The position numbers and the translations under genes are program-made. From contig JAKIWH010000002.1 of assembly GCA_022750125.1 (NCBI GenBank), positions 1-51,977 on the forward strand: DNA of 51,977 bases. The letters run 5' to 3'. Of the stretch, positions 36,846 through 51,977 are shown piece after piece. This DNA is from Thermoplasmata archaeon (lineage in GTDB: Archaea; Thermoplasmatota; Thermoplasmata; Lutacidiplasmatales; UBA184). Positions within the stretch are counted from its first letter, which is position 1; each line of letters starts with the position of its first letter. The notes under the pieces were generated by a model that saw only the letters and a program-made list of their open reading frames with translations, made no database searches and was not told the origin of the DNA.

Positions 36846-38102
36846 CTACGAGCGTCCGCTCAGCGGTGCCAGGCCACTGGGGCGAGGCGCGCCGGCGACG
36901 AGTTGGATCGCCTCCGTCAGCACCGGACCGGGAGGAACATCGTTGAAGAGCCTGGCCGTGCCCCGCAGCATCGACAACACCTCCGGTCGGAGGAGGTTGG
37001 GTGGTAGGGGCTCGTGGTCCCGGAGGGCCGACCGTATCCGGCGCTGGGAGATCGGTTCCCGGAAGCTGTCGGGGTGGGGACAACTTCTCGGGGAACCGGT
37101 ACCCTCGCACTTCCGGCAGTACCACGACTCGGCGTACCGGAGGGGGATCACCCCGACCGGCAGCTCGTCGAAGATCCTCTGGCTCGCGTACGGGTCGTAG
37201 AACCCACCCGCGCCGGCCTGATCGCGACCGAGGACGTAGTGGCTGCACCCGAAGTTCTTGCGAACGATGGCGAGGAACAGCGCGGCCCTCGGGCCGGCGT
37301 ACCGCATCCCGATGGAGAGGGTGGCGAGGAGAACGCGTTCCGGAGGAAGGTAGTGCTGGATGAGGAGGTCGTGGGCGCGCACGACGACCTCGGGGAGGTA
37401 GTCGCCGGGCTTCAGGCGACCGATGACGGGATGGATCAGGAGTCCGTCGATCTCCTCCCGCTCCAGGGTAAGCCGCTCGAGGTGCTCGTGGGCGCGGTGG
37501 GGAACGTTCCGGGTCTGGTAGGCAGCGACGTTCGACCATTGGCGCTGGGCGAACGCCCGCCGCATCTCGAGGGGCGTGAGCTCCCGGTCGGGAGCGATCG
37601 ACTCCGCGCGAGCGACAAGATCGATCGGGCCGGAAAGGGCGATCTCGCCGGTCGCGAGGAGATCCGCGACGTTCGGGTGGGCGGTGCTCGTGGTCCCGTA
37701 CACCCGCTGCGCGACGAACGGTTTGTCGAAGGCGAACCGCTCCTCAAGATGGAGGACCGCGATGAGACGGCCGCGCGAGTCGAGGAGCGCGATCTCATCC
37801 CCCGGGCGGACTCCGTCGATCACGCTCCGGTTCCTGCGCCCCGGGGGGGTCAACACGACCGGGACCGTCCAGGGGACGGAGTTCGGTAGGCGCGAATCCC
37901 GGCACACGGATTCGAGGCTGGCCCGGCTCATGAACCCCTCGAGAGGGCTGTACGCTCCGACGCCGATCTTGTCGGCGTCCAGGATCTGCTCGAGCTCGAC
38001 GTGGAGTCGGGGGAGCAGCTCCGCCTCCTCGATGCGACGCTCGGCAACTCTGTACCCGACGCGGCGGTCGATGAGGCGACCTCCGTGGGGAGGCGGGATC
38101 AT
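36846..38102 (-). CDS. sat: Sulfate adenylyltransferase (ATP sulfurylase)
   Basis: An N-terminal PUA-like domain (SPLEGFM) is followed by QTRNVPHRAHEHL (QxRNxxHxxH) and GRDQAGAG (variant of GRDHAG). A C-terminal Zn-like C.KC...CPH is also present. Confidence 0.9.
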   Translation of the reverse strand: MIPPPHGGRLIDRRVGYRVAERRIEEAELLPRLHVELEQILDADKIGVGAYSPLEGFMSRASLESVCRDSRLPNSVPWTVPVVLTPPGRRNRSVIDGVRPGDEIALLDSRGRLIAVLHLEERFAFDKPFVAQRVYGTTSTAHPNVADLLATGEIALSGPIDLVARAESIAPDRELTPLEMRRAFAQRQWSNVAAYQTRNVPHRAHEHLERLTLEREEIDGLLIHPVIGRLKPGDYLPEVVVRAHDLLIQHYLPPERVLLATLSIGMRYAGPRAALFLAIVRKNFGCSHYVLGRDQAGAGGFYDPYASQRIFDELPVGVIPLRYAESWYCRKCEGTGSPRSCPHPDSFREPISQRRIRSALRDHEPLPPNLLRPEVLSMLRGTARLFNDVPPGPVLTEAIQLVAGAPRPSGLAPLSGRS

Positions 38103-38432: not shown

Positions 38433-38945
38433 TCAGACGGCGTTCGGGGGGGCTGCGGGGCCGTCCCCGAGGCGACGGCCGTCGGCCGTCATGCGCAGGT
38501 AGAGCAGGATCGGCTGCGCCAGCCAAGCCACCGTCCAGCCGCGCTCGGTCAGCGAGTATCGGACCCGCGGAGGGCGCGTATCGAGAATCTGTCGGCGCAC
38601 CATCGAGTTCTGCTCGAGCTCCTTCAGTTTGAGGGAGAGCACCCGCGGGCTGATGTTCGGGAGGCCCCGCCGGAGCTCCTCGAACCCGATCGAGGGCACC
38701 GCATGGAGCGCGAGCAAGACATCCGCCGACCACTTTCCGAAGATCGACCGGATGATCTTGAGGTCGCCCTGAGCGGTCGTCAGCGGGTCGGAGGGAGGCC
38801 CGCGCAGGTCGGTGACCCGCTCGGCCAGACGCACCGCGGACTCGCGGAAGTCGGAGAACCAGTGTTCGATGTCCGCCTCCGGCGTTGGGAGTTCGGCGGA
38901 CAAAGTCTTCGTTGGCCGACTCGCGACCGTCGCCGTGCTCGGCAT
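38433..38945 (-). CDS. HxlR-family winged-helix transcriptional regulator
   Basis: GKWSADVLLAL....GF.EL.R.L..ISPRVLS.KLKELE...MV.R......PPRV.YSLTERG is the HxlR signature. The ATG at 38945 was chosen over the TTG at 38975 because the TATA-like box overlaps the latter. Confidence 0.85.
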   Translation of the reverse strand: MPSTATVASRPTKTLSAELPTPEADIEHWFSDFRESAVRLAERVTDLRGPPSDPLTTAQGDLKIIRSIFGKWSADVLLALHAVPSIGFEELRRGLPNISPRVLSLKLKELEQNSMVRRQILDTRPPRVRYSLTERGWTVAWLAQPILLYLRMTADGRRLGDGPAAPPNAV

Positions 38946-38973
38946 GATCTTCGACCGGTCATCCGAGATGCGC

Positions 38974-38981
38974 AATATAAA
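38974..38981 (-). promoter_or_regulatory. TATA-like box of the HxlR-family gene
   Basis: Minus-strand TTTATATT lies 29-36 nt upstream of the ATG at 38945. Confidence 0.45.
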
Positions 38982-39126: not shown

Positions 39127-40608
39127 ATGGGCGACGAACGGAACGGGCTTCCCCGGCGAAGGCTGTTGGTCCTCGGCCTCGACGGAGTTCCGCCGGAGTT
39201 CCTGTTCGAACGGTACCGGGACGTCACCCCCAATCTCACGAAGCTCCTCGACCACGCGCTTCGGGCCCCGCTTCGAACGACCGACCCGCCGATCTCGGTT
39301 CCCGCGTGGCCCGTCATGTTCACGGGGGTCGACCCCGGAACGCTCGGGGTCTACGGCTTCCGCCATCGGAAGGGCGGGTCGTACACCGAGATGTACCTCC
39401 CGACCTCGCGGGGACTCCCCGTCCCCACCATCTGGGAGACGCTCTCGGTGCGAGGCTACCGGGTCGCCGTGGTCGGGATGCCGCTCGGGTACCCTCCCCC
39501 CCCGGTGAACGGGGCGTACATCTCCGACTTCCTCACCCCCAGCGACAGCCCGACGTTCACTCACCCCGCCGAGCTGCGTGCCGAGATCGAGGACCGATTC
39601 GGCCCGTACCCGTTCGATGTCGTGTTCCGGTCGCAGGGCCGTGACCAGCTGTTTCCGCAGCTTCTTGCCATGACGCGCAAGCGGTTCGAGATCGCCCGCT
39701 GGCTCTACGAGCGGGAGCCCTGGGACGTCTTCGCGGTCCACGAGATCGGCACCGACCGGCTCAACCACGCGTACTGGAAGTACTTCAACCGCGACCATCC
39801 GAGACACGAGCCCGGCAACCGGTTCGAGCATGTGGACCTCGAGTACTACGCCGCGCTGGACCAGTGCATCGGCAGCCTCCTCGAGCTCACCGACGAGCGA
39901 ACGATCGTCGTCATCGCTTCCGACCACGGGTCGATGTCGATGAACGGCTGTTTCTGCATCAACCAGTGGCTCGAGGCGAAGGGCTACCTTGTCCTGAAGC
40001 GGCCTCCGCCCGCGCCGGGAACCCCGCTCGAGAAGGCCGAGGTGGACTGGAAGGCGACGACGGCCTGGGGCGAGGGTGGCTACTACGCCCGGATCTTCTT
40101 CAACGTCCGCGGCCGCGAGCCCTCGGGTGCCGTTCCGGCCGGGCAGGTGGTCGCGCTGCGGCGCCAGATCGCCCGGGACCTGGCGACGATCACCGATCCC
40201 GAGGGCCGTCCGATCGGGGTCCGGATCCTCGACCCCAGAGAGATCTACGCCACGGTGCGCGGGGACGCCCCGGACCTCATCGTCTACCTGGGCGAGTTGC
40301 GGTGGCGCTCGGGGGGAACGATCGGCCATCCGGGCCTCTTCCTCCAGGAGAACGACATCGGGCCCGACGACGCGGTGCACGGGGTCGATGGGGTCTTCCT
40401 CCTCTACGACCCGAAGGACCCCGTCGCGCGGACCCACGCGACGATCCAGATCCGCGACGTCACACCGACCCTGCTGAGCCTCCTCGGGGAGCCGATCCCG
40501 AGGCACGTCCAGGGCTCCCCCGTGCTCGACGTGGTCGAGCACGTACCGGGGGCACGTCCGCCGACCTCGGAGCAGCTCGCGGCGGCGCCGCTCCCCGCTC
40601 AGCCGTAG
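39127..40608 (+). CDS. Alkaline-phosphatase-superfamily protein (type I phosphodiesterase / nucleotide pyrophosphatase-like)
   Basis: LLVLGLDGVP is the metal-binding Asp strand. PISVPAWPVMFTGVDPG..GV is the nucleophile Ser/Thr-x-P...TG pattern of the NPP family, and SDHG is the distal metal site. Confidence 0.85.
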   Translation: MGDERNGLPRRRLLVLGLDGVPPEFLFERYRDVTPNLTKLLDHALRAPLRTTDPPISVPAWPVMFTGVDPGTLGVYGFRHRKGGSYTEMYLPTSRGLPVPTIWETLSVRGYRVAVVGMPLGYPPPPVNGAYISDFLTPSDSPTFTHPAELRAEIEDRFGPYPFDVVFRSQGRDQLFPQLLAMTRKRFEIARWLYEREPWDVFAVHEIGTDRLNHAYWKYFNRDHPRHEPGNRFEHVDLEYYAALDQCIGSLLELTDERTIVVIASDHGSMSMNGCFCINQWLEAKGYLVLKRPPPAPGTPLEKAEVDWKATTAWGEGGYYARIFFNVRGREPSGAVPAGQVVALRRQIARDLATITDPEGRPIGVRILDPREIYATVRGDAPDLIVYLGELRWRSGGTIGHPGLFLQENDIGPDDAVHGVDGVFLLYDPKDPVARTHATIQIRDVTPTLLSLLGEPIPRHVQGSPVLDVVEHVPGARPPTSEQLAAAPLPAQP

Positions 40609-42089
40609 CCCCACGAGCGGAGCCGCACGTCAAGGCCGGTCATCGGCTTCTCGCCCTGCGACAGCTCGGAGCGCTGTCGGTCCGCTTCCTCCGCGAGGTA
40701 CCCTCCGAAGATCGGGGTGGCGCGGTCGGTCGCCTCCGCTCGCTCGAACACCTCGGGCGGGCGGTGGTCGGGGTCGGCCTCGGCGTCCCACTCGTAGAGC
40801 GTGCGCGTGGCGAGGTCCAGCACCCACTTCGACCGCTCGCGGTAGGCCGCGAGCAGCCGGTGGTTCCACAGTTGGTCCATCCGGATCCCCTGCAGCGACC
40901 GATTCGGGTCGGAGGCGGGGGCGCCCTCGCAGAAGACCGCACCGTCCTCGGGCGCGGCCGCCCGGTGGGGGAAGGGGGCGTGCCCTTCCTCGTCGAACGG
41001 CGCGAGCCCCATCGCGGTGCTCCGCAGCCACGATACGACCTCGGCGAGGCTCGTCCAGCGTTCGACGCGCCGCGGAACCGAGTGCTCCTCGGGAGGCACC
41101 ACGAGGAGAGGCACCCGGGCGATCGAATCGGTCGCCCCGCAGCCGTGGTAGACGTTCCCCCCCTCCCCGAACGACTGGCCGTGGTCCGCGGTGACGACGA
41201 ACAGCGTGCGGGACCATCGCCCGTGGCGGCGCAGGCTCCCGACGAGCTCACCGATCTTCAGGTCCGCGAGCTCGAGGGTGCGGAAGTAGCCGGCGAGCAG
41301 CGAGTCCCACGGAACGAACCGCTGGAGCCCGTCGACCGCGAGCAGGTAGTACCTCGGCGTGCGCGCGTACCAGCGGGCGAGGGGACCGACCGGGTGCCCG
41401 TTCGGCACCTCGGGGTACGGTTCGTGGGCGTCGACGAGGTTCACGAAGGCGAAGAACGGGCGGTCCGCCGGTTGCTGGCCGACCCACCGGTCGAACTCGC
41501 CGACCACCTCGGGTCCGCACACCTCGCGCTTGAACGCGACCTCCTGGGGGTGGTTGAACGCGTTCATCGGCACGATGCACGGCGGAAGCCGCTCGATGAG
41601 CCGGCGGATCTCCGAGGAGTAGAGGAAATCCGCGTGGCCGGCCCACCGGTTGGCCGCCGTCCGATCCTCGTCGGAGATCCCGATGTGGCGGGCGTACCGG
41701 TGGTCGAACCCGTCCTCGAGGCCGTACCCGCCGACCAGATGGACCATCTCGGTGAACATCGCGGTCGAGTAGCCGCGGCGGCGCAGCCAGGCGGCGACGG
41801 TCTCCCGGGGCGCGGCCCCCCGCTCGAAGGTCCGAACGCCGTGGACGTTCGGATAGACCCCGCTGAAGAGCGAGGCATGGGAGGGGATCGTCCAGTTCGC
41901 CGTGGCGACCGCCCTCGGGAAGACGGTCCCCCGGCGCGCCAGCTCCGCGAGCACCGGCGTGACCGGCCCCTCGGTGCCGCCGAGGGCGGGCAGGCTCTTC
42001 GCCCGGGCGCAGTCGAGCACGACGACGACGATGTTGGTCCCGCTCGGCGGTGGCAGGCCGCCGGCAGCTCCGGGGGGGCTCTCGCTCAT
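40599..42089 (-). CDS. Sulfatase-fold (alkaline-phosphatase superfamily) enzyme lacking the Cys/Ser-x-Pro-x-Arg formylglycine motif
   Basis: NIVVVVLDCAR, TIPSHASLFSGVYP (in place of C/S-x-P-S-R-x-S-L-x-T-G) and TADHGQSFGE..N.YHG are present. The ATG at 42087-42089 overlaps the stop of the upstream gene (ATGA). The remainder of track ORF ..43232 is out of frame with that gene. Confidence 0.85.
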   Translation of the reverse strand: MSESPPGAAGGLPPPSGTNIVVVVLDCARAKSLPALGGTEGPVTPVLAELARRGTVFPRAVATANWTIPSHASLFSGVYPNVHGVRTFERGAAPRETVAAWLRRRGYSTAMFTEMVHLVGGYGLEDGFDHRYARHIGISDEDRTAANRWAGHADFLYSSEIRRLIERLPPCIVPMNAFNHPQEVAFKREVCGPEVVGEFDRWVGQQPADRPFFAFVNLVDAHEPYPEVPNGHPVGPLARWYARTPRYYLLAVDGLQRFVPWDSLLAGYFRTLELADLKIGELVGSLRRHGRWSRTLFVVTADHGQSFGEGGNVYHGCGATDSIARVPLLVVPPEEHSVPRRVERWTSLAEVVSWLRSTAMGLAPFDEEGHAPFPHRAAAPEDGAVFCEGAPASDPNRSLQGIRMDQLWNHRLLAAYRERSKWVLDLATRTLYEWDAEADPDHRPPEVFERAEATDRATPIFGGYLAEEADRQRSELSQGEKPMTGLDVRLRSWGYG

Positions 42090-44623
42090 CCTTCGAGGAT
42101 CACCCACTCGGCGTTCGAGTAGACGGGGTGGAAGCCGAACGCCGCCTCGTAGTACCCGACCTGGGCGGCGTCGTACGAGTCGGCGGGCCAGAGCAGGAAG
42201 TGGATGCTGTGCTCGGCGAGGAACTGCTGGGTCTGGAAGACGGGGCGCACCTGATCGGTCGGGAGCTGGGTCCCCGTCGGGAGGACGGAGAGGTTGAGGG
42301 TGAACGATCGCCCCGTGACGGGGAAGACGGCCTTCCACTCCGACCCGCCGTCGAACCGGGCGCTCGAGGTGTTGGACGGGAGAGGGTTGAGGCCGACGGT
42401 CGCACCGACCTGGGCCGGGTTGGGATTTTGGCCGACCGTCCCCTGGACCTCCCAGGTGAGCACCCCGGCGGCGTAGGCCTGTTCGGTGATACGGTCCCGG
42501 GCGAGCTGGGGAGACCCACCGGGGGGCGACGCGAGCCCGAGACCGAAGGAACGGACGGTCTGGCCCGCGGCGGCGACGACCTGGAACTCGATGATCGCGC
42601 TCCCGTTGCCGGTCGGCTGGGCGACCTCGGTGACGGTGGCGGCGGGGGTGACGTACACGATCGTCGCGGCCCCGCCGGCCGCCTGGGGGCTCGTGAAGGT
42701 CGGAGCCGCTCTCCCGGTGAGCAGCGGGTAGGTCGTGAGCGTGGTCCCGGACCCGGCGGTGACGTACAACGCGCCGGGGAGCACACGAAAGATCGGGAAC
42801 GGCACCCCGAGGTCGTAGACCGTGTACAGGGGAGCCTGGCTCAGCAGGGAGGTCTGGAAGCCCGAGAAGGAGAGCACCCCCGGCCCGTCCGCGAGGACGG
42901 TCTGCGCGTTCAGGGCCCAGTACGATTCCTGGGCCACGCCGATCTGGAACGGGTCGAAGAGGAGCCAGACGGGTCCGGCAGTGTACGAGGCCCGATTGGT
43001 GAGCGCTTCGCACCACCGGGCCGCGGTCGTCACCGTCAGCACGTTGCCACCGGCAGGCTGCGTCCGCAGCCAGGAGGTCGCGGCGACGAAGGCGGCGTCG
43101 TGCGCCGAGTGGGAGCCCGACGACTCCCCGAGCTGGACCGCGGGGATCGTCACGGTCGAGAACAGCAGGAACAGGAGAGCACCGACCATCGCCGGCGCGA
43201 CCCAGCCGGCCGACCGTCCGGAGGTCGTCCACCGCGGAGATCGCGTTCGGTAGGGTCCATCGGGCGCGGCCGGGAGGTCGGGAGCAGCGGCCCGCTCACG
43301 CGCGGCCCAGCGCGTGAGCCGGTCGGCGGCCACCACCGCGAGCAGGAGCGACGGCAACGGGAGGAAGTAGAGGAACCGTTCGTAATCGGTGGCCACATGC
43401 GCAAGCCAGCCCAGGGCCGGGACGCTCGCGACCGAGGCGAGCCAGCCCGCGGCGACGGTGAGGGGGAGCGACAGCGCGTGGGGCCGGAGCGCGCGGACCA
43501 CGAGCAACCCGACGAGCAGGAGCACGGGGATCGCGAGGAGGATCGCGGTGGCGATATTCGGGTCGAGGACCAGCGTGCTCCCGGCCGGGGAGAACGCCGG
43601 GTAGTGGCCCAACGGGACGAAGATCTCCCCGATCTCGTCGACGGCATACGCCGACGGATTCGAGTAGAAGTAGCTCGGATGCGAGATCCCGAGCCGGGCC
43701 GTCACCGCGCCGTAGATCCCGACGAGGGCGGCGACGCCGAAGCCCCCCAGCAGGTTGCGACGGTCCAGGAAGAAACGGAAGGAGACCCCGCGTGTCAGCG
43801 CCAGGAACAGGCTCGAGCCGGCAAGGCTCGCGATGAGGAGGAAGAACGTCAGGTCGTGGGCGAGGTAGGTCAGCCCGACCAGCGAGTAGAACCCGACGGC
43901 GTCCCTCGTCCGTCCCTCTCGAACGAAGAGGAGGAAGAAGACCATCGCCTCGTTGAAGAGGACGAGCGCGAAGAGGTTCGGGTACGCCCCCCAGAAGAGC
44001 ATCTGCAAGGTGGTACCGCAGCCGAGACCTGCCCCCACGAGCGCGACCTGCAGGAACCCCGTGTGGAGGTAGCGCCGGGCGAGATGGATGAGCGAAAGCC
44101 CGTAGGCGGCGATGAGACCGACGGCGAGGATCGATGCGGCGAGGGGAGGGCTCGAGGTCACGAGAACGAGAAAGCCCAGCACCGGGAAGAGGAGAGGAGA
44201 GTACACGCCCGGCTGGTTCGCTGGGTCCGGGGCGGTCGGCAGCCCTCCGTACGGGTAGGAGACGGAGAGCCAATGGCCCGGGTCGACCCCCGGCGGCAAC
44301 GGCGCTTGGGAGAACTCGACGGCGACCGCGATGGAGACCCCGAGCGTGAGGAGGAGCATCGGAAGGAGGTACCATCGATTCACCGTCGATCGCGATCGCC
44401 AATGGGCGGCGAGCTCCCGTGTCACGTGGCCGGCCTGCGTACGGAGCGACCGGGCGCGCGGCGCGTCGAACGGCGTCCCGTGCCGGGTCGGGAACCCGAG
44501 CGCGTCGCTCGCCGGTGCTGACGCTCCCGCTCCGCCCGGCTCCCCGTACGATTGCCACGTCTCGTTCGTCGCCGTCCCCCCTACTCCGCTGGTCCTTCCC
44601 ACCCGAGGATCGAGGTGGACCAC
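42086..44623 (-). CDS. Polytopic membrane protein with a large C-terminal extracytoplasmic domain (GT-C-like architecture), paralog A
   Basis: An 845-aa protein with about 12 hydrophobic segments in the first ~470 aa, then a further TM segment and a ~350-aa beta-rich domain. It shares clear blocks with 45219-47141 (GVDPGHW/GGDPGNW, FWGAYPNL/YWGAYPNL, TDYERF/TDYHRF). Confidence 0.75.
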   Translation of the reverse strand: MVHLDPRVGRTSGVGGTATNETWQSYGEPGGAGASAPASDALGFPTRHGTPFDAPRARSLRTQAGHVTRELAAHWRSRSTVNRWYLLPMLLLTLGVSIAVAVEFSQAPLPPGVDPGHWLSVSYPYGGLPTAPDPANQPGVYSPLLFPVLGFLVLVTSSPPLAASILAVGLIAAYGLSLIHLARRYLHTGFLQVALVGAGLGCGTTLQMLFWGAYPNLFALVLFNEAMVFFLLFVREGRTRDAVGFYSLVGLTYLAHDLTFFLLIASLAGSSLFLALTRGVSFRFFLDRRNLLGGFGVAALVGIYGAVTARLGISHPSYFYSNPSAYAVDEIGEIFVPLGHYPAFSPAGSTLVLDPNIATAILLAIPVLLLVGLLVVRALRPHALSLPLTVAAGWLASVASVPALGWLAHVATDYERFLYFLPLPSLLLAVVAADRLTRWAARERAAAPDLPAAPDGPYRTRSPRWTTSGRSAGWVAPAMVGALLFLLFSTVTIPAVQLGESSGSHSAHDAAFVAATSWLRTQPAGGNVLTVTTAARWCEALTNRASYTAGPVWLLFDPFQIGVAQESYWALNAQTVLADGPGVLSFSGFQTSLLSQAPLYTVYDLGVPFPIFRVLPGALYVTAGSGTTLTTYPLLTGRAAPTFTSPQAAGGAATIVYVTPAATVTEVAQPTGNGSAIIEFQVVAAAGQTVRSFGLGLASPPGGSPQLARDRITEQAYAAGVLTWEVQGTVGQNPNPAQVGATVGLNPLPSNTSSARFDGGSEWKAVFPVTGRSFTLNLSVLPTGTQLPTDQVRPVFQTQQFLAEHSIHFLLWPADSYDAAQVGYYEAAFGFHPVYSNAEWVILEG

Positions 44624-44694
44624 GGGGTGAGCGGTCCAAAAGGCGCATCGTAGGGGCTCGGTTAGGGGCTATGCTCACGGAGAGCCGTCAACGA

Positions 44695-45135
44695 TCACAC
44701 GGAGGGGGAGGGGACGAGGAGGACGGTCCACTCCGGGTTCTGATAGAGGATGGGAAGCCCGTACTCTCGGACGAGGTACGCCGACTCCCCCGGCAGCGCG
44801 ACGATCGGGTTGGGCGCGAACGACGCGTTGCGCATCAGGACGAACCGGACCCCGAGCTGACTCCAGATCCCGGGGGCGCTCAGTACGGGAGGAACCGTCA
44901 CGACGTAGCTCGCGGCCTGGGGTGTCGTGAGGGTGAGGCTTCCGTCGAGGGAAGTGCTCACCGAGGGGTCGGCGGGGCGGTAGACGAGTTGGACGGCCGG
45001 CCCGCCGGCGCTCGGGTCGTACTCCGTCGCGCTGACGAGCGCATCCGCCGGAGCGACCGTCCCGGAGGTCACGGGGCGGACCGACCCCCCGATGAGCTGC
45101 CAGCTGAACTCGCCCGGTGTTCCGGTTCCCGTCAC
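44695..45135 (-). CDS. C-terminal fragment of paralog B (this frame carries coding-like sequence up to about 45222)
   Basis: Its end (..YGLPILYQNPEWTVLLVP) parallels the C-terminus of paralog A (..FGFHPVYSNAEWVILEG). Upstream in the same frame, VAFTVTTTGPHTLRSLALTIVPE continues without a start codon. Confidence 0.6.
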   Translation of the reverse strand: MTGTGTPGEFSWQLIGGSVRPVTSGTVAPADALVSATEYDPSAGGPAVQLVYRPADPSVSTSLDGSLTLTTPQAASYVVTVPPVLSAPGIWSQLGVRFVLMRNASFAPNPIVALPGESAYLVREYGLPILYQNPEWTVLLVPSPSV

Positions 45136-45218
45136 GGTCGCCCGAGTCGCGGTCTCGGGAACGATCGTCAGGGCGAGCGACCGGAGGGTGTGCGGGCCCG
45201 TCGTCGTGACCGTGAACG

Positions 45219-47141
45219 CTACGCGGTCGGAGCGACCGGGTCGACCGAGATCGATACCACGAGCGTGAACCCCGTCTCGGTGTACACGACCGTCATCGGT
45301 TGGCCGGCGCTCGCTGGGAGGGAGACGACGGGGGTCCCGTTCAACCGTCCGTCGGTGAGGCGGCCGGTCCCGGGGTCGGAGAGCTGCACGACGACGCTCT
45401 GGGGGACGACACGCAGGACCGGGTGGACCGGACCCGAGAGCGACACCGAGTAGTCCGGCAAGCCGTCGGCGTCGGTCGGGTTCACCGCGTGCACCGCGGC
45501 CGTGACCTTCCCGTTCGTCAGCGCGTAATGGCTAACGAGGGCGTAGTACGCGAGCTGCGCGTCGGTCGCCTGCGACGGATAGAACAGGTAGAGCGGCGAG
45601 CTCGGGGCGTAAGCGTTCTGGGCGGTGAGCGCGCGGGTCCACTTCTCCGCTCCGGCGACGGTGAGCGTCGCTCCCCGGACCCCGCTGTGACGGATCGCGT
45701 TGACCGCGTCGAGAAACGCGGCGTCGTGCCCCACCTTCGTGAACGCCGCGTCGGACCGGGACATCGCGGGAGCGGTCGCCGAGAGCGTGAGCAGCAGGAC
45801 GACGGCCACCCCGACGATCGCCATCGCTCCGGTGCGCGGAATCGACCTGGCGGCCTTCCACCCCCGCGCGGCTCGGTTCGGGGCGGGCTGGGAAGGGGTC
45901 GTGGGCGGCTCCGACGTGGTGGCCGTCAGCGTGGGGCCCTTACGGAGCACCCAGGCGGTCTCCCAGAAGTACGCGGCCGTCAGGACGACGGGGGTCAGCA
46001 GGAGGAACCCGAACCGATGGTAATCCGTGACGATCTGCAGGAAGATCCCGACGATCGCAAGCACCATCGGCGCGAGCAGCCAGGCCAGCAGCAGCAGGGC
46101 GCTCGGCGTCAGCCAGCGGGGCCGCCGATCCCGTAGGAGGGCGAAGACGGTGAGCCCGGTCCCCACCCCCACCGCAAGGAGGTCGAGGGCGAGCGCCCGT
46201 CCGATGTAGACGTGCGGCACGAGCGCCTGGAAGATCGTGCCGAACGGGAGGAGGGTGAACTCGCCCGAGCTCGACTGAAAGTAGTCCGGATGAGTGATCC
46301 CGAGGGCGAAGGTCCCCCCGTAGTAGCCGCCGACGGTGACGAGGACGAGCAGGAGGCCGACGAGCCCCCCGTGCGACTGGACAAGGGCCCGGGCCGCGAT
46401 GGACGGGGACTCGAGCTCCCCGCGCTCGGCCTCACGGACCGCCTGCGCACGCGGCGGGGTCGGGATGAGACCTCCGAGCCCGAGGAACAGGACCGTCCCA
46501 GTGGAGAGGGCGATCCCCACGAGCGAGTGGGTCAGGACCGTCGCCGCGAAGCAGGCCCAGAATTGGAAGGCGCCGGAGGAGGGGTGCCCACGACCCGCCC
46601 GTAGGAGGCCGATCCAAGCGAGGTTCATGAAGACGTACGCGAGGAGGTTCGGGTACGCTCCCCAGTAGAACATGTCCAACAGCGACGGATCGATGAGCAG
46701 GACGCTCACGGCGAGCAGGGCCATGGTGTCCGTTCGCAGCAAGTACCGAGCTAGCGCGTAGGTCGAAATCCCCAACATGAACAGGAGGACGGGGGCGAAG
46801 AGCTGGGCCCCCTCGACCGGACCGAGCGCTCCGACGAACAGCCCGAGGATCGGGAACAGAAGGGGGGGATAGCCGAAGGGGGTGAGCTGGGAGGGATACG
46901 GCTGGCCAAGGTAGATGTAACCGGTGGCGACCCAGTTGCCTGGGTCCCCGCCCGGCACCACCGGGGTGTTGTGGAACACCAGTCCCAGCCAGGCGGCCAT
47001 CCCCCCCGAGAACCCGAGCGCGACGATCCAGTAGGTCCAGGCCGCCCCACCGGTCTTGCCCAGCCGTGCGTGGACGTTCTGGGCCCCGTGCTCCATCGGC
47101 CGAATTGCCCGGCCCAACGAATCGGACGACTGGTATGCCAT
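45219..47141 (-). CDS. Polytopic membrane protein, paralog B, N-terminal 640 aa (truncated by a frameshift)
   Basis: It is collinear with paralog A over the TM region and the start of the extracytoplasmic domain. It ends at the TAG at 45219-45221, where the other frame takes over. Confidence 0.75.
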   Translation of the reverse strand: MAYQSSDSLGRAIRPMEHGAQNVHARLGKTGGAAWTYWIVALGFSGGMAAWLGLVFHNTPVVPGGDPGNWVATGYIYLGQPYPSQLTPFGYPPLLFPILGLFVGALGPVEGAQLFAPVLLFMLGISTYALARYLLRTDTMALLAVSVLLIDPSLLDMFYWGAYPNLLAYVFMNLAWIGLLRAGRGHPSSGAFQFWACFAATVLTHSLVGIALSTGTVLFLGLGGLIPTPPRAQAVREAERGELESPSIAARALVQSHGGLVGLLLVLVTVGGYYGGTFALGITHPDYFQSSSGEFTLLPFGTIFQALVPHVYIGRALALDLLAVGVGTGLTVFALLRDRRPRWLTPSALLLLAWLLAPMVLAIVGIFLQIVTDYHRFGFLLLTPVVLTAAYFWETAWVLRKGPTLTATTSEPPTTPSQPAPNRAARGWKAARSIPRTGAMAIVGVAVVLLLTLSATAPAMSRSDAAFTKVGHDAAFLDAVNAIRHSGVRGATLTVAGAEKWTRALTAQNAYAPSSPLYLFYPSQATDAQLAYYALVSHYALTNGKVTAAVHAVNPTDADGLPDYSVSLSGPVHPVLRVVPQSVVVQLSDPGTGRLTDGRLNGTPVVSLPASAGQPMTVVYTETGFTLVVSISVDPVAPTA

Positions 47142-47333
47142 CGGCCCGACTCCGTGCCCGGACGAATTCGACGAGGCAAGGCGTTGAATACCATCGCTAA
47201 AGGTTAGGATAGGTCGTCACTTACCGGACACGCTTCGGGGGACGGCGCAGGGCCGGGGGCGACCCCTAACCCAGATGTTCTGTCCGAACCCGCGGGCTCA
47301 TAGCAGTCCGACCCCCGTCGGGTGGACCAAGAG

Positions 47334-48482
47334 ATGGCGCGAAGGCTTGGTCGGGGATGGAGTGACGGCGCTGGAAGAACATCGATCGTCCTGAGCTTCA
47401 CGCTCGTAGCGCTCTTGGCCCTCTTCGTGCCGGTACTCCATCCGGCTCCCGCGTCCCGGCCCTCGGGCATCGAAGCCCTCCGGGAGCTACCGCACGGTTC
47501 GGGTGGAGCGCCCCCCCTCGTCAACAACGGGGACTTCTACGTGAACGACTCGACTCCGCCGGGGTCGTTCCCGGTCGGGAGCCGTTTGACCGCGAGCTAC
47601 CAGCTCGTGGTGCCTGGATTCCCGAACGGCCCCGCCGGGCAGATTCACGTGCCGAGCGCCGTCGCAGTCTTCCCGGGCGCGTCGGGTCCGATCCACGTCT
47701 ACATCCCGTCGGCTAACCTCACCGTCTCCCCGGGCGGGCAGGTCACTCCGTCCGAGAACAGCTCGACTCGACTCACGTCGACCACCCAGTTCAGCCCGAC
47801 CACCCCGGCCTCCCTCGCGTCGCAAGGCTTCGCCGTGCAGGCGTCGTGGCCTGTGGGGACGCACTCGGTCGGGATCCAATGGAGCTGGTCGATCGCGACG
47901 CCGGACGGCGTCGTGACGAACGGGCCCGCCTCGAACCGAGTGTCGATCGCTCCGGCAGAGACAGCGACGGTGGCGAACAACCCCCCGGCCTCCGTTCCGC
48001 TCGGGGGGAGCTACCCGATCTGCCTCAGCGGCCCGGTCACCGGCCGTACCTTCTCCGCCCACTTTTCGACGGACTCCCCGTTCACCACGTACTCGGCTCC
48101 ACCCGTGACCGTAACGAACCTGTCGGGGGGTGAGTTCTGCTGGAGCACGACGGTTCCAGCCTCCCTCCCCTCGGGTGCAGCGAACGTTCATCTGTGGGAG
48201 TATGCCGCGGGGACCTACCTACTCTACGAGTTCCCCGTCCAACTCGACGGGTCGTCGACCTCCTCGACCGCCGGCGGGGGGGGCCTCCGACTGTCGTCGG
48301 TCGGAGTAGCGGCCGTGGGAGCGGTGGCGGTCGCATCGGCCGTGGCGGGGGTTGGCGTCCTCTCCCGGCGCCACGCTCGGGTGTCCAATGTCCCGTCAGC
48401 CGTACCGCCGTCCGTAGCGGCAACACCGCGAAACTCCAGTCCCCCGTCTCCTCCCGAGAGCCGCTGGACCTGGCGACCCTAG
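47334..48482 (+). CDS. Secreted, C-terminally membrane-anchored glycoprotein-like protein, hypothetical
   Basis: An N-terminal TM/signal segment (TSIVLSFTLVALLALFVPVL) precedes a Ser/Thr/Pro-rich beta-type ectodomain with sequons. A C-terminal TM segment (VGVAAVGAVAVASAVAGVGVL) plus RRH ends it. An alternative GTG start lies at 47322. Confidence 0.7.
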   Translation: MARRLGRGWSDGAGRTSIVLSFTLVALLALFVPVLHPAPASRPSGIEALRELPHGSGGAPPLVNNGDFYVNDSTPPGSFPVGSRLTASYQLVVPGFPNGPAGQIHVPSAVAVFPGASGPIHVYIPSANLTVSPGGQVTPSENSSTRLTSTTQFSPTTPASLASQGFAVQASWPVGTHSVGIQWSWSIATPDGVVTNGPASNRVSIAPAETATVANNPPASVPLGGSYPICLSGPVTGRTFSAHFSTDSPFTTYSAPPVTVTNLSGGEFCWSTTVPASLPSGAANVHLWEYAAGTYLLYEFPVQLDGSSTSSTAGGGGLRLSSVGVAAVGAVAVASAVAGVGVLSRRHARVSNVPSAVPPSVAATPRNSSPPSPPESRWTWRP

Positions 48483-49150
48483 GGGGAACTACGCCATCGG
48501 GATCGCATTCGGAGTCGGGTCTGGTCGCTCAGGAAGCCCGGAGGGGTCATCGATTCGCATGGGGCCGCGCAACCCACCTCGCCTCGCCGTAAGCTAGGGT
48601 CGCGTGACGGTTCGGGCCCGGCAAACGTCGCGGGTTGGGACGGAGACGTCGTGGAATCCTGCGATCCGGCCCCGAGCGCCCGCCCGGAGCTCGCGGTAGG
48701 GAGCGATGGGGTCACGATGGCGACGGAACCGTTGCGAACGAATCGCCGCGCGGGCTCCGCCGCACGGTCTGTGTTGAGCTCCTGCGACGATCGGTCGAAC
48801 TCGAGGTGGGCGTGGGTCCGGGCCTCAACTCGTCGCCCTCGAGGAGCCTTGCCACGCAGCCCGAGGCCGGTCGCGCCCGAGCCGGGAAGCCGGTTGGACC
48901 CTCCTCACGGCGTGGAAGCAAGTGCCCCCCGGAGGGAGGCTCGGCGGGCGTCGAGGGGTACGGTCGCGAGCGATACCTCCCGCGACACTTTGCAGACCGC
49001 TCGATGCTCGACCCAGGGTGCAACGGTCGGTGGCCGAGGTCGGTACGATCTAAGTGTGCCGGGTCGGTGCCCCGGGATCGATAGGGGCTCGGAGCGGAAC
49101 GTCGATGGGACTCTTGCGATAGATGGCGGAGTACTGGGTCTGCTACGGCC

Positions 49151-49168
49151 AGTAACTGAGTTGTTACT
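49151..49168. repeat. Perfect 6-bp inverted repeat AGTAAC-N6-GTTACT inside an AT-rich island
   Basis: Read directly from the sequence: 49151-49156 AGTAAC, loop TGAGTT, 49163-49168 GTTACT. Its function is unknown. Confidence 0.6.
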
Positions 49169-49247
49169 TACACCAATTCATGTAATGGCTATCATCAAGG
49201 TCGCAATCGATATCGGAATCGAAGGGAATTATCCGAGTAATACGGTT

Positions 49248-49255
49248 CATATTTA
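49248..49255 (+). promoter_or_regulatory. TATA-like box of the GT2 gene
   Basis: CATATTTA lies 26-33 nt upstream of the ATG at 49281, which is consistent with a leaderless transcript. Confidence 0.45.
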
Positions 49256-49280: not shown

Positions 49281-50783
49281 ATGCGCTGGACGGAGACAGG
49301 TTCGCGAGCCGACCTGGAACATGCCGAGCTTCCCCTCGCGCGGGCTGAATGGCCGAAGGCGACGCGGGCAGGCATCGGATCGGAGGTCGACCTCGAGGAA
49401 CCCACCCCCCTGCACCGCCCGGCGCATCTTCCCAACGCGGCAGCTTCCGGTTCGAGGCTGCTGATCCTCCCGACGCTGAACGAGGAGGAGGGTCTCGGGC
49501 TCACCCTCGCGGAGTTTGCCTCGACCCGGTTCGTACCCGAGGCATCGCGACCGGTGATCCTCGTCGTCGACGGACACTCGACCGACGGCACCGGGGAGGT
49601 GGCGCGGAGCCACGGCGTGCGCCTCCTGCTCCAGGATGGTCGGGGCAAGGGCTCGGCGGTCCGGGAAGGCCTTTCGTGGGCGCTCCGGAACGGCTTCCAG
49701 ACGGTGGCCGTCATGGATGCCGACGCCACGTATCCGGCCGGGGCGCTCCCCGCGCTCTTTGACCTGTTGGAGGCGCACCAGGACGTCGTTATCGGGGTCC
49801 GAAAGGCCCCCCCGCTCGAGCGAGCGAGCCTCCGGGACCTTGTCCACCGTGTGGGCAACGGGCTCCTGAACTACGCCGCCGCGCAGCTGAGCGGCAAGTC
49901 CCTGCTCGATGTGTGCAGCGGGTTCTGGGGGGTTCGGGTCTCGACCCTCGACCGACTTGCGCTGTGCTCGGACGGATTCGAGATCGAGTCGGAGCTCTTC
50001 ATCAAGTCGTTTCGGCGGGGACTCAGGGTCGCTCAGATACCGGTTCAGTACGGTTCCCGCGCTGGGACCGCCAAGCTGCGCGCGTTCCGGGACGGCTCCC
50101 GGATCCTGCTCTCGATCTTCCGGCAGTCGGTGCGCCAACCCCGTCGACCGACGCCGCAGTCCGCCCGGGATTTCACGGCCGACCCGCTCGCCCTCGTCCT
50201 CGGTCTCGGTCCGGAACGCGTGCTGCTGTTGAGCGCGCCGGAGCGGGTCTCGGACGCCGACCGCATCGCCGACAGGATCGCGACCGCCTCCCCTTCGGCC
50301 GAGGTGACCACGGCGCTCCTGCCGGAGGGGGCCCGCGACTCGTTCGACGGACACCTCCTCTCGGCGCTGGTCGCCCCGTCGGTAGGGGAGGCGGCGCCCA
50401 CGGTCGTGACGTTCCTGCCGTCCTCCGGTAACGGCTACGACCTTCCGGTCTTCGTCGGGATCCCCCGCACGCAGCGGCTGCTCTGCCTCGCCCCGAGGTC
50501 GGATCGACGCGTGCACGGCGAGCCGGCCGAACTCGCCGCGCGCATGGGGTTCCGCAACGAGCGGACCCCCTCGGGGCGGCTCGGCGCGTGGTTCGTCCTC
50601 GCAGCGATTCTCGAGCGGTCGGGGACCCATCGGGAGCTCGCGCTCCTGAAGGCGAACGCCGGCGACGCCCCTATGCAGAGCTTCCGCAAGCCGTCCCCGC
50701 TGACGCTCCCCGGCGCGGGACGTTGGTCCCGCGTGACCGTCCCGTACACGTGGCTCACCGAGGCCGCCCACCGCCTGAGGTGA
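49281..50783 (+). CDS. Family 2 glycosyltransferase (dolichyl/polyprenyl-phosphate hexose synthase-like) with a ~200-aa C-terminal extension
   Basis: The GT-A/GT2 core is LLILPTLNEEEGL, VVDGHSTDGT, GKG.A...G, VMDADATYP (DxD) and GFEIESEL. Residues from about 300 to 500 have no recognisable motif and no TM segment. Confidence 0.85.
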   Translation: MRWTETGSRADLEHAELPLARAEWPKATRAGIGSEVDLEEPTPLHRPAHLPNAAASGSRLLILPTLNEEEGLGLTLAEFASTRFVPEASRPVILVVDGHSTDGTGEVARSHGVRLLLQDGRGKGSAVREGLSWALRNGFQTVAVMDADATYPAGALPALFDLLEAHQDVVIGVRKAPPLERASLRDLVHRVGNGLLNYAAAQLSGKSLLDVCSGFWGVRVSTLDRLALCSDGFEIESELFIKSFRRGLRVAQIPVQYGSRAGTAKLRAFRDGSRILLSIFRQSVRQPRRPTPQSARDFTADPLALVLGLGPERVLLLSAPERVSDADRIADRIATASPSAEVTTALLPEGARDSFDGHLLSALVAPSVGEAAPTVVTFLPSSGNGYDLPVFVGIPRTQRLLCLAPRSDRRVHGEPAELAARMGFRNERTPSGRLGAWFVLAAILERSGTHRELALLKANAGDAPMQSFRKPSPLTLPGAGRWSRVTVPYTWLTEAAHRLR

Positions 50784-50875: not shown

Positions 50876-51977
50876 TTGGCCCGGGAGGAGGGGGCCGAGA
50901 CACCCCGGGCCTCGGGGCCGAGGGAGCCCGTCGGGTCGGAGTCCGGAGGGAGCGACCTGAGCTCCTTCGAGTCGCTCGGCCGGGGGACGGGGGTGCTCCT
51001 CCTCGGCACGACCTTGCTGTTCGTCTTTGGCTTCCTCTCCCGGGTCCTCATCGCACGAGAGTTCCCCGTCGCCGATTGGGGCGTCTTCTCGCTCGCGCTG
51101 GCGTTGAGCGGGCTCCTCTCGGTCGTTGGGTTGCTCGGTCTCGACCAGGCCCTCGCCCGCGCCCTTGCCTTCGAGGTGCGACCCGAGGTGCGCTGGGCGA
51201 TCGTCCGGTATGCGGTCTCGGTCTCGACGGGGGTCGCGGTCGCGATCTCCGCGACGCTCCTCCTCCTGAGCGGACCGACCGCCGGGCTCTTCCACCTACG
51301 GGCGGAGACCTGGGTCTTTCAGCTGTTCGCGATCGCGACCGGGTTCAATCTCCTCAGCCTGGTCCTCGCCGCCATCTTCCAGGGATTCGAGGACGCGCGA
51401 CCGAACGCGATCTACAACCAGATCGTGAACCCGGCGCTCTTCGTGGTGTTTGTGGCCATCGCGGCGGGGCTGCGTCTCGGCTTCGTCGCCGTGGTGGCGG
51501 GTTATCTCGCCGCGTCGGCGCTGAGCTTCCTTCTCCTCGCGGCCCACTCGGTGCGCCGTCGACAGACCCACCGGCCCGCGGGACCGGTGCCGCCGGCGCC
51601 CCGCGGCGAGCTCTGGCGTCTCTCGGCCTCCCTCTGGGGCGTCGGGACCCTTGCCTACGCGACCGCGTTCGCCGATACGGTGATCCTGGGGGTGTTCCGC
51701 CCGGCGGCCGACGTGGGCGCCTACGCGGCGCTGATGGTCCTCGGTCGCGTGCTCCTGGTCGCGAACGGTACGCTGACGTACATCTACCTCCCGATCGCCT
51801 CGCGGCTCACCCGACAGCGCGCGTTCTCTACGATCCGCTCCACCTACCTCGTCGGGACCCGGTGGGTGCTCCTCGTCGTGACCCCCGGCTTCCTGCTGTT
51901 GCTGCTGCTGCCGCGGCTCTCGTTGACCGCCGTCTTCGGCGCGAACTACGCCGCCGGTGCCGTGCCGCTGCAGATCC
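50876..51977 (+). CDS. Polysaccharide/oligosaccharide flippase (Wzx-like, MOP superfamily), 3' end beyond the window
   Basis: It is not in the ORF track because it has no stop inside the window. The frame is open from the TGA at 50852-50854 to the window end, and TTG at 50876 is the first start. The translation (..LGRGTGVLLLGTTLLFVFGFLSRVLIAREFPVADWGVFSLALAL... and ...VILGVFRPAADVGAYAA...) has at least 9 hydrophobic segments and the typical Wzx N-terminal pattern. Confidence 0.8.
   Translation, partial: MAREEGAETPRASGPREPVGSESGGSDLSSFESLGRGTGVLLLGTTLLFVFGFLSRVLIAREFPVADWGVFSLALALSGLLSVVGLLGLDQALARALAFEVRPEVRWAIVRYAVSVSTGVAVAISATLLLLSGPTAGLFHLRAETWVFQLFAIATGFNLLSLVLAAIFQGFEDARPNAIYNQIVNPALFVVFVAIAAGLRLGFVAVVAGYLAASALSFLLLAAHSVRRRQTHRPAGPVPPAPRGELWRLSASLWGVGTLAYATAFADTVILGVFRPAADVGAYAALMVLGRVLLVANGTLTYIYLPIASRLTRQRAFSTIRSTYLVGTRWVLLVVTPGFLLLLLLPRLSLTAVFGANYAAGAVPLQI

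Follow-up and report, generated by a model that had tools for sequence, protein, structure and literature searches.

Tandem Paralogs of a Predicted GT-C-Fold Glycosyltransferase Family in a Conserved Gene Island of a Lutacidiplasmatales-Like Archaeon

The stretch of DNA analyzed here (hereafter, the window) comprises 51,977 nucleotides of contig JAKIWH010000002.1 (positions 1 to 51,977, forward strand) of the assembly GCA_022750125.1, a metagenome-assembled genome (MAG) of an uncultivated, Lutacidiplasmatales-like acid-soil representative of the Thermoplasmata. Two minus-strand genes in its distal part, designated A and B, encode large membrane proteins of an unnamed and uncharacterized family. 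Their sequences, predicted structures, conserved residues, and gene environment make it likely that A and B are anciently diverged paralogs of an archaeal family of glycosyltransferases with the glycosyltransferase C (GT-C) fold, which would transfer a lipid-linked hexose to a surface glycoconjugate. The kind of enzyme is well known, in that the fold, topology, and gene logic follow known patterns, and the two proteins probably decorate cell-surface glycans.

Genes A and B

The first-pass annotation of this DNA had placed tandem paralogs of a membrane protein of about 850 amino acids at positions 42086–47141. Both genes were indeed found there on the minus strand, and A was intact with 845 amino acids, whereas the reading frame of B was interrupted by a frameshift. 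The parts of the two genes are as follows:

42086..44623, minus strand: gene A, the GT-C paralog of clade A; 845 amino acids from the GTG at 44623, the true start codon being uncertain
First ~77 residues of gene A, minus strand: cytoplasmic tail, disordered and Arg-rich
43115..44377, minus strand: membrane module of gene A (residues 83–503); ~11 transmembrane (TM) helices and outside juxtamembrane helices, GT-C fold
42089..43114, minus strand: C-terminal outside domain of gene A (residues 504–845, ~340 amino acids)
45219..47141, minus strand: gene B, the paralog of clade B, first part; 640 codons from the ATG at 47141 to a premature TAG, containing the whole membrane module
44695..~45222, minus strand: last ~175 codons of gene B, read in a different frame; their terminal part corresponds to the C-terminus of gene A and to those of intact relatives in clade B
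45219..45225, minus strand: frame switch of gene B; single-base type, outside any homopolymer, with the coding signal intact on both sides

The BLASTP alignment of A with B had 30% identity over 659 columns with an E-value of 1e-40, which places the similarity, at the level of sequence, far above chance. All 12 of the blocks (six pairs) that had been quoted as shared and collinear were located by exact string search; they start at residues 110, 141, 209, 312, 409, and 508 of A and at residues 62, 91, 158, 281, 369, and 472 of B.

The window has a G+C content of ~70%, and the lists of its open reading frames are crowded with spurious frames; the real frames were picked by third-position GC (GC3). 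In gene B, the GC3 signal moves to another frame where the first frame stops (45219), and a tblastn comparison with an intact relative placed the switch at window position ~45222, with one residue skipped. Read through, gene B would encode ~815 amino acids, and the clade B orthologs in loci L029, L030, and L031 are intact. Since the full coding signal is present on both sides of the switch, it represents either a very recent inactivation or an assembly error.

Predicted Fold

The annotation had recognized in the pair the layout of GT-C glycosyltransferases. This was corroborated by structure prediction followed by structural searches, in which the top matches were all GT-C glycosyltransferases; the overall fold did not point to a non-glycosyltransferase family. 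The AlphaFold2 model of A had a predicted local distance difference test (pLDDT) score of 87 and a predicted template modeling (pTM) score of 0.84, and its membrane part matched GT-C glycosyltransferases only. With Foldseek, AglB, STT3, PglB, EmbA/B/C, ArnT, DPY19, and ALG12 were retrieved at E-values from 2e-6 to 1e-3, with AglB at rank 1. A scan independent of Foldseek (VIA) yielded AglB (3waj) with Z 22.8, 422 residues aligned, and a root-mean-square deviation (rmsd) of 3.8, followed by STT3B (6s7t, Z 21.7), ArnT (5f15, 21.5), Pmt4 (9e61, 21.4), Pmt1/2 (21.0), AftA (8if8, 20.4), PglB (20.0), and ALG12 (19.6). Between 358 and 439 residues were aligned in the top matches (AglB, STT3B, ArnT, Pmt4, Pmt1/2, AftA, and PglB; Z 20–23). 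As the values for AglB, ArnT, and Pmt are tied within ~1.5, the modeled fold of A would single out no subfamily.

In the model of B, the membrane part was confident and the truncated outside part was poor. The matches were ArnT (Z 20.3), AglB (19.6), Pmt1/2 (19.3), and ALG12 (19.3), with the overall set at Z 17–20; the first 20 rows were all GT-C-fold chains (Z 10–20), after which the values fell to Z 8.

The large C-terminal outside domain that had been expected after many TM segments is present in the model of A, where ~11 TM helices are followed by 340 amino acids. Residues ~560–800 of this part form a galactose-mutarotase-like beta supersandwich (Z 12–14, ~180–200 residues aligned, rmsd ~3.2), which resembles domains of glucoamylases, GH65/GH94 phosphorylases, and polysaccharide lyases and is inserted, in the model, into a small alpha/beta domain composed of residues 504–572 and 795–845.

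Membrane Topology and Conserved Residues

The topology was predicted by combining the AlphaFold2 helices, hydropathy, and the positive-inside rule. The loop with the conserved Asp, which had been proposed to be the first extracytoplasmic one, was placed outside rather than in the cytoplasm, because Lys and Arg are abundant in the inside loops and sparse in the outside loops. In 30 clade A sequences, the inside loops contained 16.0 Lys and Arg residues per 92 residues and the outside loops 4.9 per 130, most of the latter being the conserved R183, R184, and R416; family-wide, the density was 17% in the inside loops vs. 3.8% in the outside loops.

According to this prediction, the N-terminal tail of A, with 9 Lys/Arg residues, precedes TM1 (residues 83–104), after which a 36-residue loop without Lys or Arg carries D114 and leads to TM2 and TM3. 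The conserved outside segment 183–213 holds R183, R184, and a WG(G/A)YPN motif on two short helices. It is followed by three TM helices, with H256 at an outside turn, the Arg-rich inside loop 277–289, one TM helix, the outside loop 311–354 (44 residues without Lys or Arg), and two further TM helices. The module ends with a short outside loop bearing the TDYxRF motif (D413 and R416), a TM helix, a disordered basic inside loop, and the last TM helix, behind which the outside domain begins. Two codons mark the central positions:

44282..44284, minus strand: codon of D114 in gene A, motif PPGVDPGxW in the first outside loop; the counterpart in B is D66 (46944–46946)
43376..43378, minus strand: codon of R416 in gene A, motif TDYxRF in outside loop EL5; the counterpart in B is R376 (46014–46016)

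Residue conservation was counted across 53 aligned full-length sequences of the family, drawn from clades A and B. The Asp of the first loop (D114 in A, D66 in B) was invariant in all members of both clades (53/53), as were G112, W118, P143, and P215. F146, L258, G405, Y414, and R416 were kept in at least 51 of the 53 sequences (R416 in 52), and the same threshold was reached in the outside domain by A515, G526, W537, F556, A570, P598, G606, and W840. D114 is a candidate catalytic base or metal ligand, and R416 may be a ligand of the lipid phosphate. The full set of candidate catalytic residues was retained by both clades; therefore, judging from the alignment, both A and B look like active enzymes and not like dead subunits.

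The residue pattern also bears on whether A and B could be non-catalytic scaffolds with a GT-C fold, like PIG-U of the glycosylphosphatidylinositol transamidase, chains of which were among the fold matches (Z 13–14). However, the catalytic GT-C enzymes scored much higher, and the Asp of the first outside loop (EL1) and the Arg of EL5 are invariant across two clades with <30% identity. A scaffold role is thus improbable in the extreme.

Sequence Relation to Known GT-C Families

A search with the family profile retrieved representatives of 393 clusters (50% identity), and for 109 of these the E-value was 1e-30 or better; every named family member was a hypothetical protein from a Thermoplasmata MAG. 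No sequence of the PDB was matched by a profile of 40 homologs at E-values up to 10. Distant representatives (~700–900 amino acids) carry PMT_2 (up to 44 bits), PTPS_related, or DUF6541 domains; the PMT_2 (PF13231) scores of P0154 and P0143 were 44.4 and 31.9 bits, respectively, with a cut-off of 26.1. The comparison of clade A with an alignment of 19 of these distant proteins in hhalign gave a probability of 100% and an E-value of 6e-54 over 691 columns, and the Asp, YPN, His, and DYxR motifs of the two were aligned to each other. In addition, a language-model look-up of the family pointed to Bathyarchaeota clusters, one of which was automatically named GT39. These sequence comparisons place the family, as a divergent branch, among the ArnT/PMT_2-like members of the GT-C superfamily. 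A and B themselves score below the Pfam gathering cut-off for PMT_2 and have no match to it, so their link to the PMT_2-positive proteins is transitive only, and they are assigned at the level of the superfamily alone (GT-C_A class).

With ArnT/PMT_2 proteins (PF13231; GT83/GT39-like in CAZy), A and B share the fold, as given by the ArnT values above, and the N-in topology; in both groups, the first outside loop contains an acidic residue and the C-terminal domain lies outside. A and B differ in having ~11 TM helices, a 340-amino-acid outside domain with a mutarotase-like supersandwich, and no Pfam match, and in being archaeal, multi-copy, and paired in two clades.

The nominally best structural match, together with the layout of a TM module and an outside domain, relates A and B to AglB/STT3/PglB (GT66). 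The reading that follows from it, namely that they are additional oligosaccharyltransferases moving a whole lipid-pyrophosphate-linked glycan onto protein, draws on AglB as the nominally best fold match of A in both structural searches. That match, however, is tied with those of ArnT and Pmt. A and B lack the WWDYG, DK/MI, and TIxE motifs of the GT66 proteins; a WWDxG or WxD[YFW]G motif occurred in none of the 53 members, a comparison by hhalign with an alignment of AglB sequences from relatives returned a probability of 0.14%, and PF02516 gave no match at E-values up to 1. Membership of A and B in the AglB/STT3 family was rejected on these grounds. A separate, canonical AglB is encoded on contig C5 of the source genome (E 2e-160, within an open frame of 2217 amino acids), and the genus relative G001 has an AglB and three copies of the present family. 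We consider the oligosaccharyltransferase reading very unlikely.

It had also been considered that the family replaces AglB, as PF02516 found no match in the source genome; the clear AglB on C5, found with the AglB alignment, led to the rejection of this idea. Moreover, the PF02516 model performs weakly in this lineage, with scores of 26–50 bits in relatives. The AglB/STT3 domain (TIxE and WWDYG) of L072 (G000:C5:7077-11942) and of L014–L019 lies in open frames of ~2150–2420 amino acids; such giant frames, far longer than usual AglB proteins, were seen in nearly all searched relatives of the class.

Phylogeny, Copy Number, and Pairing

The phylogenetic tree was constructed from 54 sequences with FastTree, with local support values, and was rooted at the midpoint for drawing only. 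Its sequences fall into two clades, A with 31 rows and B with 23, and the local support is 100% for both. In the pairs of L029, L030, and L031, the upstream genes grouped with gene B of the window and the downstream genes with gene A. Since the window pair is orthologous to intact B–A pairs in other species, the duplication is older than these species, and the B-then-A order was inherited. The old duplication suggested in the first-pass annotation is thus supported; differing specificities of the copies for acceptor or donor, which the annotation also suggested, would be a conjecture beyond it.

Matches to a 268-amino-acid query were found in 38 of 151 species genomes of the order, all in only two of its ten genera, with 1–7 matches per genome. 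Among the retrieved loci, 1–5 full-length copies were counted per MAG, which is a floor and not a census. The MAGs that hold related loci are named Thermoplasmata, Candidatus Lutacidiplasma silvani, or Candidatus Lutacidiplasmatales, and many of them come from acid soils (PMC9287336). In the genome paper on the Lutacidiplasmatales, nothing is said about glycosylation, an S-layer, the cell wall, sulfatases, or the envelope. The source assembly (1.89 Mb, 146 contigs, 87% complete) contains four copies in two tandem pairs, one in the window and one on contig C120.

The second GT-C pair is damaged by assembly. Its first gene starts at the end of contig C72 and continues at the start of C120, so that the two pieces are one gene. 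Several copies of the source genome had been considered as possible pseudogenes, but the apparent frameshift of the copy at the start of C120 is a run of 10 N (L022 1513-1522), a scaffold gap that carries no information on decay. Its second gene has a deletion of ~34 nucleotides near the start relative to the ortholog in G002 (L022 ~2048), which shifts the N-terminal frame. Split copies of the family were also observed in some other MAGs: the copy in L027 is interrupted by an in-frame stop, and those in L054 and L056 change frame several times. The contig names of L054 and L056 (of the type "contig_NNNNN") might indicate assembly from long reads, with which sequencing indels would be consistent.

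Tandem GT-C paralogs in one operon, and carbohydrate-binding outside domains, are likewise features of the mycobacterial EmbC/A/B and AftD proteins (GT53), of which EmbA and EmbB form a heterodimer. The whole-chain match to this group is, however, weaker (Foldseek E 7e-5; AftD Z 14.0), the outside domains are different, and no sequence similarity to it was detected. A and B might similarly be an obligate heterodimer, like Pmt1–Pmt2 or EmbA–EmbB, instead of independent enzymes. More than 20 of the 39 Thermoplasmata loci contain both clades, usually as a B-then-A tandem, and two such pairs are present in the source genome; the full set of candidate catalytic residues is kept in both clades. Nevertheless, the orthologous islands L026, L028, and L035 contain A without B, several MAGs have clade A only or clade B only among the retrieved loci (with the counts again a floor), and in the source genome B is broken and A is intact. 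The obligate heterodimer appears rather unlikely, and we tentatively regard A and B as two independent transferases.

Conserved Gene Neighborhood

Housekeeping genes occupy 17–32 kb of the window, and the envelope-glycan island extends from 36.8 kb to the contig end. Apart from A and B, the island contains the following genes:

36846..38102, minus strand: ATP sulfurylase, far end of the conserved island
38433..38975, minus strand: HxlR-type regulator, far end of the conserved island
39127..40608, plus strand: type I phosphodiesterase/nucleotide pyrophosphatase family protein, 493 amino acids, no TM segment; convergent with the operon, synteny-conserved
40599..42089, minus strand: sulfatase-superfamily enzyme, 496 amino acids, no TM segment or signal peptide, Thr at the nucleophile position
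47322..48482, plus strand: small surface protein, divergent from gene B; N-terminal signal/anchor, Ser/Thr/Pro-rich ectodomain, four N-x-S/T sequons, C-terminal TM anchor
49281..50783, plus strand: family 2 glycosyltransferase (GT2), with AglJ and dolichyl-phosphate hexose transferase as the best models
50876..51976, plus strand: Polysacc_synt (Wzx/AglR-type) multi-TM flippase candidate, running off the contig end

The synteny was examined by tblastn of the island proteins against 46 related loci, many of which have truncated flanks. In L029 and L031, the genes for the flippase, GT2, surface protein, B, A, sulfatase-like enzyme, phosphodiesterase-like enzyme, HxlR regulator, and ATP sulfurylase were found with order and orientation kept. 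L030 had the same order without matches to the flippase and the surface protein, the GT2 gene again lying next to the pair, and parts of the island order were seen in many other loci. The flippase candidate belongs to a Wzx-like and not a GtrA-like family.

The ATG of the sulfatase-like gene overlaps the stop codon of gene A (ATGA), and the sulfatase-like gene makes up a single predicted operon with B and A. A sulfatase-like gene adjoins the GT-C gene in more than 20 loci, sometimes with two or three copies per locus (L032 and L033). Sulfatases have a formylglycine Cys or Ser where this enzyme has Thr, and the protein gave a weak match to EptA. The ATP sulfurylase and the HxlR regulator are syntenic with the GT-C and sulfatase-like genes in L026, L029–L031, L035, and L050, which hints at a link to sulfur activation.

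This arrangement recalls ArnT and EptA. By that analogy, A and B would be ArnT-like enzymes that glycosylate the head group of a membrane lipid or lipoglycan, and the sulfatase-like enzyme would act as a phospho-group transferase. ArnT was a tied top fold match for both models, the adjacency of GT-C and sulfatase-superfamily genes is recurrent and in the window translationally coupled, and the Thr at the nucleophile position and the weak EptA match point the same way. On the other hand, the sulfatase-like protein, having neither TM segment nor signal peptide, should be cytoplasmic, unlike EptA or LtaS. On balance, an ArnT-like role of the pair seems unlikely.

The small surface protein belongs to a type-I-anchored, sequon-rich family that has no Pfam match; an atlas look-up gave scores of only ~0.8 and was uninformative. 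A gene of 357 amino acids that follows the C120 pair (L022:4170-5243, plus strand) is a paralog of the window protein, with 33% identity and an E-value of 3e-31 (P0189 and P0201), and has the same anchor–ectodomain–anchor layout with eight sequons. The two forms of the family together occur in 21 of the 39 Thermoplasmata loci, and one flanks each GT-C pair of the source genome.

The Ser/Thr-rich anchored proteins next to both pairs might suggest that A and B are protein O-glycosyltransferases like the protein O-mannosyltransferases (PMTs), acting on Ser and Thr of these neighbors. Such a reading would fit the frequency of the surface-protein family in the loci, the PMT_2 matches of distant members, the cluster named GT39, and the presence of Pmt4 and Pmt1/2 among the tied top fold matches. 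However, PMTs proper carry an Asp-Glu motif in their first loop and MIR domains in their fifth, whereas A and B have a single Asp in the PPGVDPG motif of loop 1 and match neither PF02366 (PMT) nor MIR. The mutarotase-like sandwich moreover resembles carbohydrate-binding domains found in glycoside hydrolases, phosphorylases, and lyases, which suggests a glycan rather than a bare peptide as the acceptor. A PMT-like activity is accordingly regarded as improbable.

Proposed Function

The adjacent GT2 candidate, flippase candidate, and multi-TM transferases correspond in gene logic to three-component systems, namely AglD/AglR/AglS, which performs outside glycosylation in Haloferax (H. volcanii; PMC3871713), and the bacterial GtrB/GtrA/Gtr* and GT136 systems, in which carbohydrate-binding modules of the GT-C proteins bind the acceptor glycan (PMC11127046). 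Because of this combination of GT2, flippase, and GT-C genes, A and B are read as transferases acting on the outside. The locus differs from AglD/R/S and Gtr* by the presence of two transferase paralogs and of conserved, presumably cytoplasmic sulfatase-like and phosphodiesterase-like enzymes, both of the alkaline-phosphatase superfamily.

As to donor, acceptor, and activity, we infer the following scheme. The AglJ-like GT2 would load a hexose onto dolichyl phosphate in the cytoplasm, and the Wzx-like protein would flip the loaded carrier. A and B would then each transfer the hexose, as a monosaccharide, to a surface glycoconjugate, differing in linkage or acceptor. In the predicted architecture, a cytoplasmic N-terminal tail and ~11 TM helices would present an active site at the outer face of the membrane, made up of the first-loop Asp (D114 in A, D66 in B), the WG(G/A)YPN loop, the conserved His, and the Arg of TDYxRF, below an outside domain of 340 amino acids whose mutarotase-like sandwich probably holds the glycan acceptor. 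The sequon-rich anchored protein beside gene B, or its glycan, would be the leading acceptor candidate.

Several points weigh against this scheme. The GT2 protein scored 148.6 bits with the AglJ model (cut-off 325) and 96 bits with the dolichyl-phosphate hexose transferase model, in both cases short of the equivalog cut-off, and it lacks a TM segment, which leaves it a tentative lipid-sugar synthase. Some loci with the family have neither flippase nor GT2, with the reservation that many flanks are truncated. The likeness in fold is equal for oligosaccharyltransferases and monosaccharide transferases, so that the donor type is not fixed by it. Furthermore, no Pfam or NCBIfam match was obtained for A or B, including the C-terminal piece of B, and the clustering of the conserved residues in one pocket would follow from the loop assignment.

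A bolder proposal combines the elements differently: the surface protein, B, A, and the Thr-type sulfatase-like enzyme would constitute a self-contained archaeal system, in which an A/B heteromer directly glycosylates its cognate surface protein, possibly by O-glycosylation, and the sulfatase-like enzyme adds a phospho or sulfo group to the lipid-linked donor before flipping. To our knowledge, no archaeal O-glycosylation enzyme is known. This proposal is quite unlikely, and the transfer of hexose by A and B to a surface glycoconjugate remains the preferred interpretation.

With lipid-linked sugars as the source, GT-C enzymes build or decorate the glycans of the cell envelope. In uncultivated Thermoplasmatota from acid soils, the present family takes up as much as ~1% of some genomes of 2 Mb, and its fixed set of partners makes it an entry point to the envelope chemistry of this lineage. 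New GT-C sequence families are still being founded once activity is shown, for example GT136 (PMC11127046), and the family is a candidate founder of a new CAZy glycosyltransferase family.

Other Observations at the Flanks of the Loci

Between the surface-protein gene and the GT2 gene of the window (48350–49250), no frame with a coding GC3 signal was detected, and the G+C content drops sharply just before the GT2 start. Kelch-repeat beta-propeller proteins were observed at the edges of family loci on G000:C120 (L022:6572-7999) and G001:C23 (L021:220-2502).

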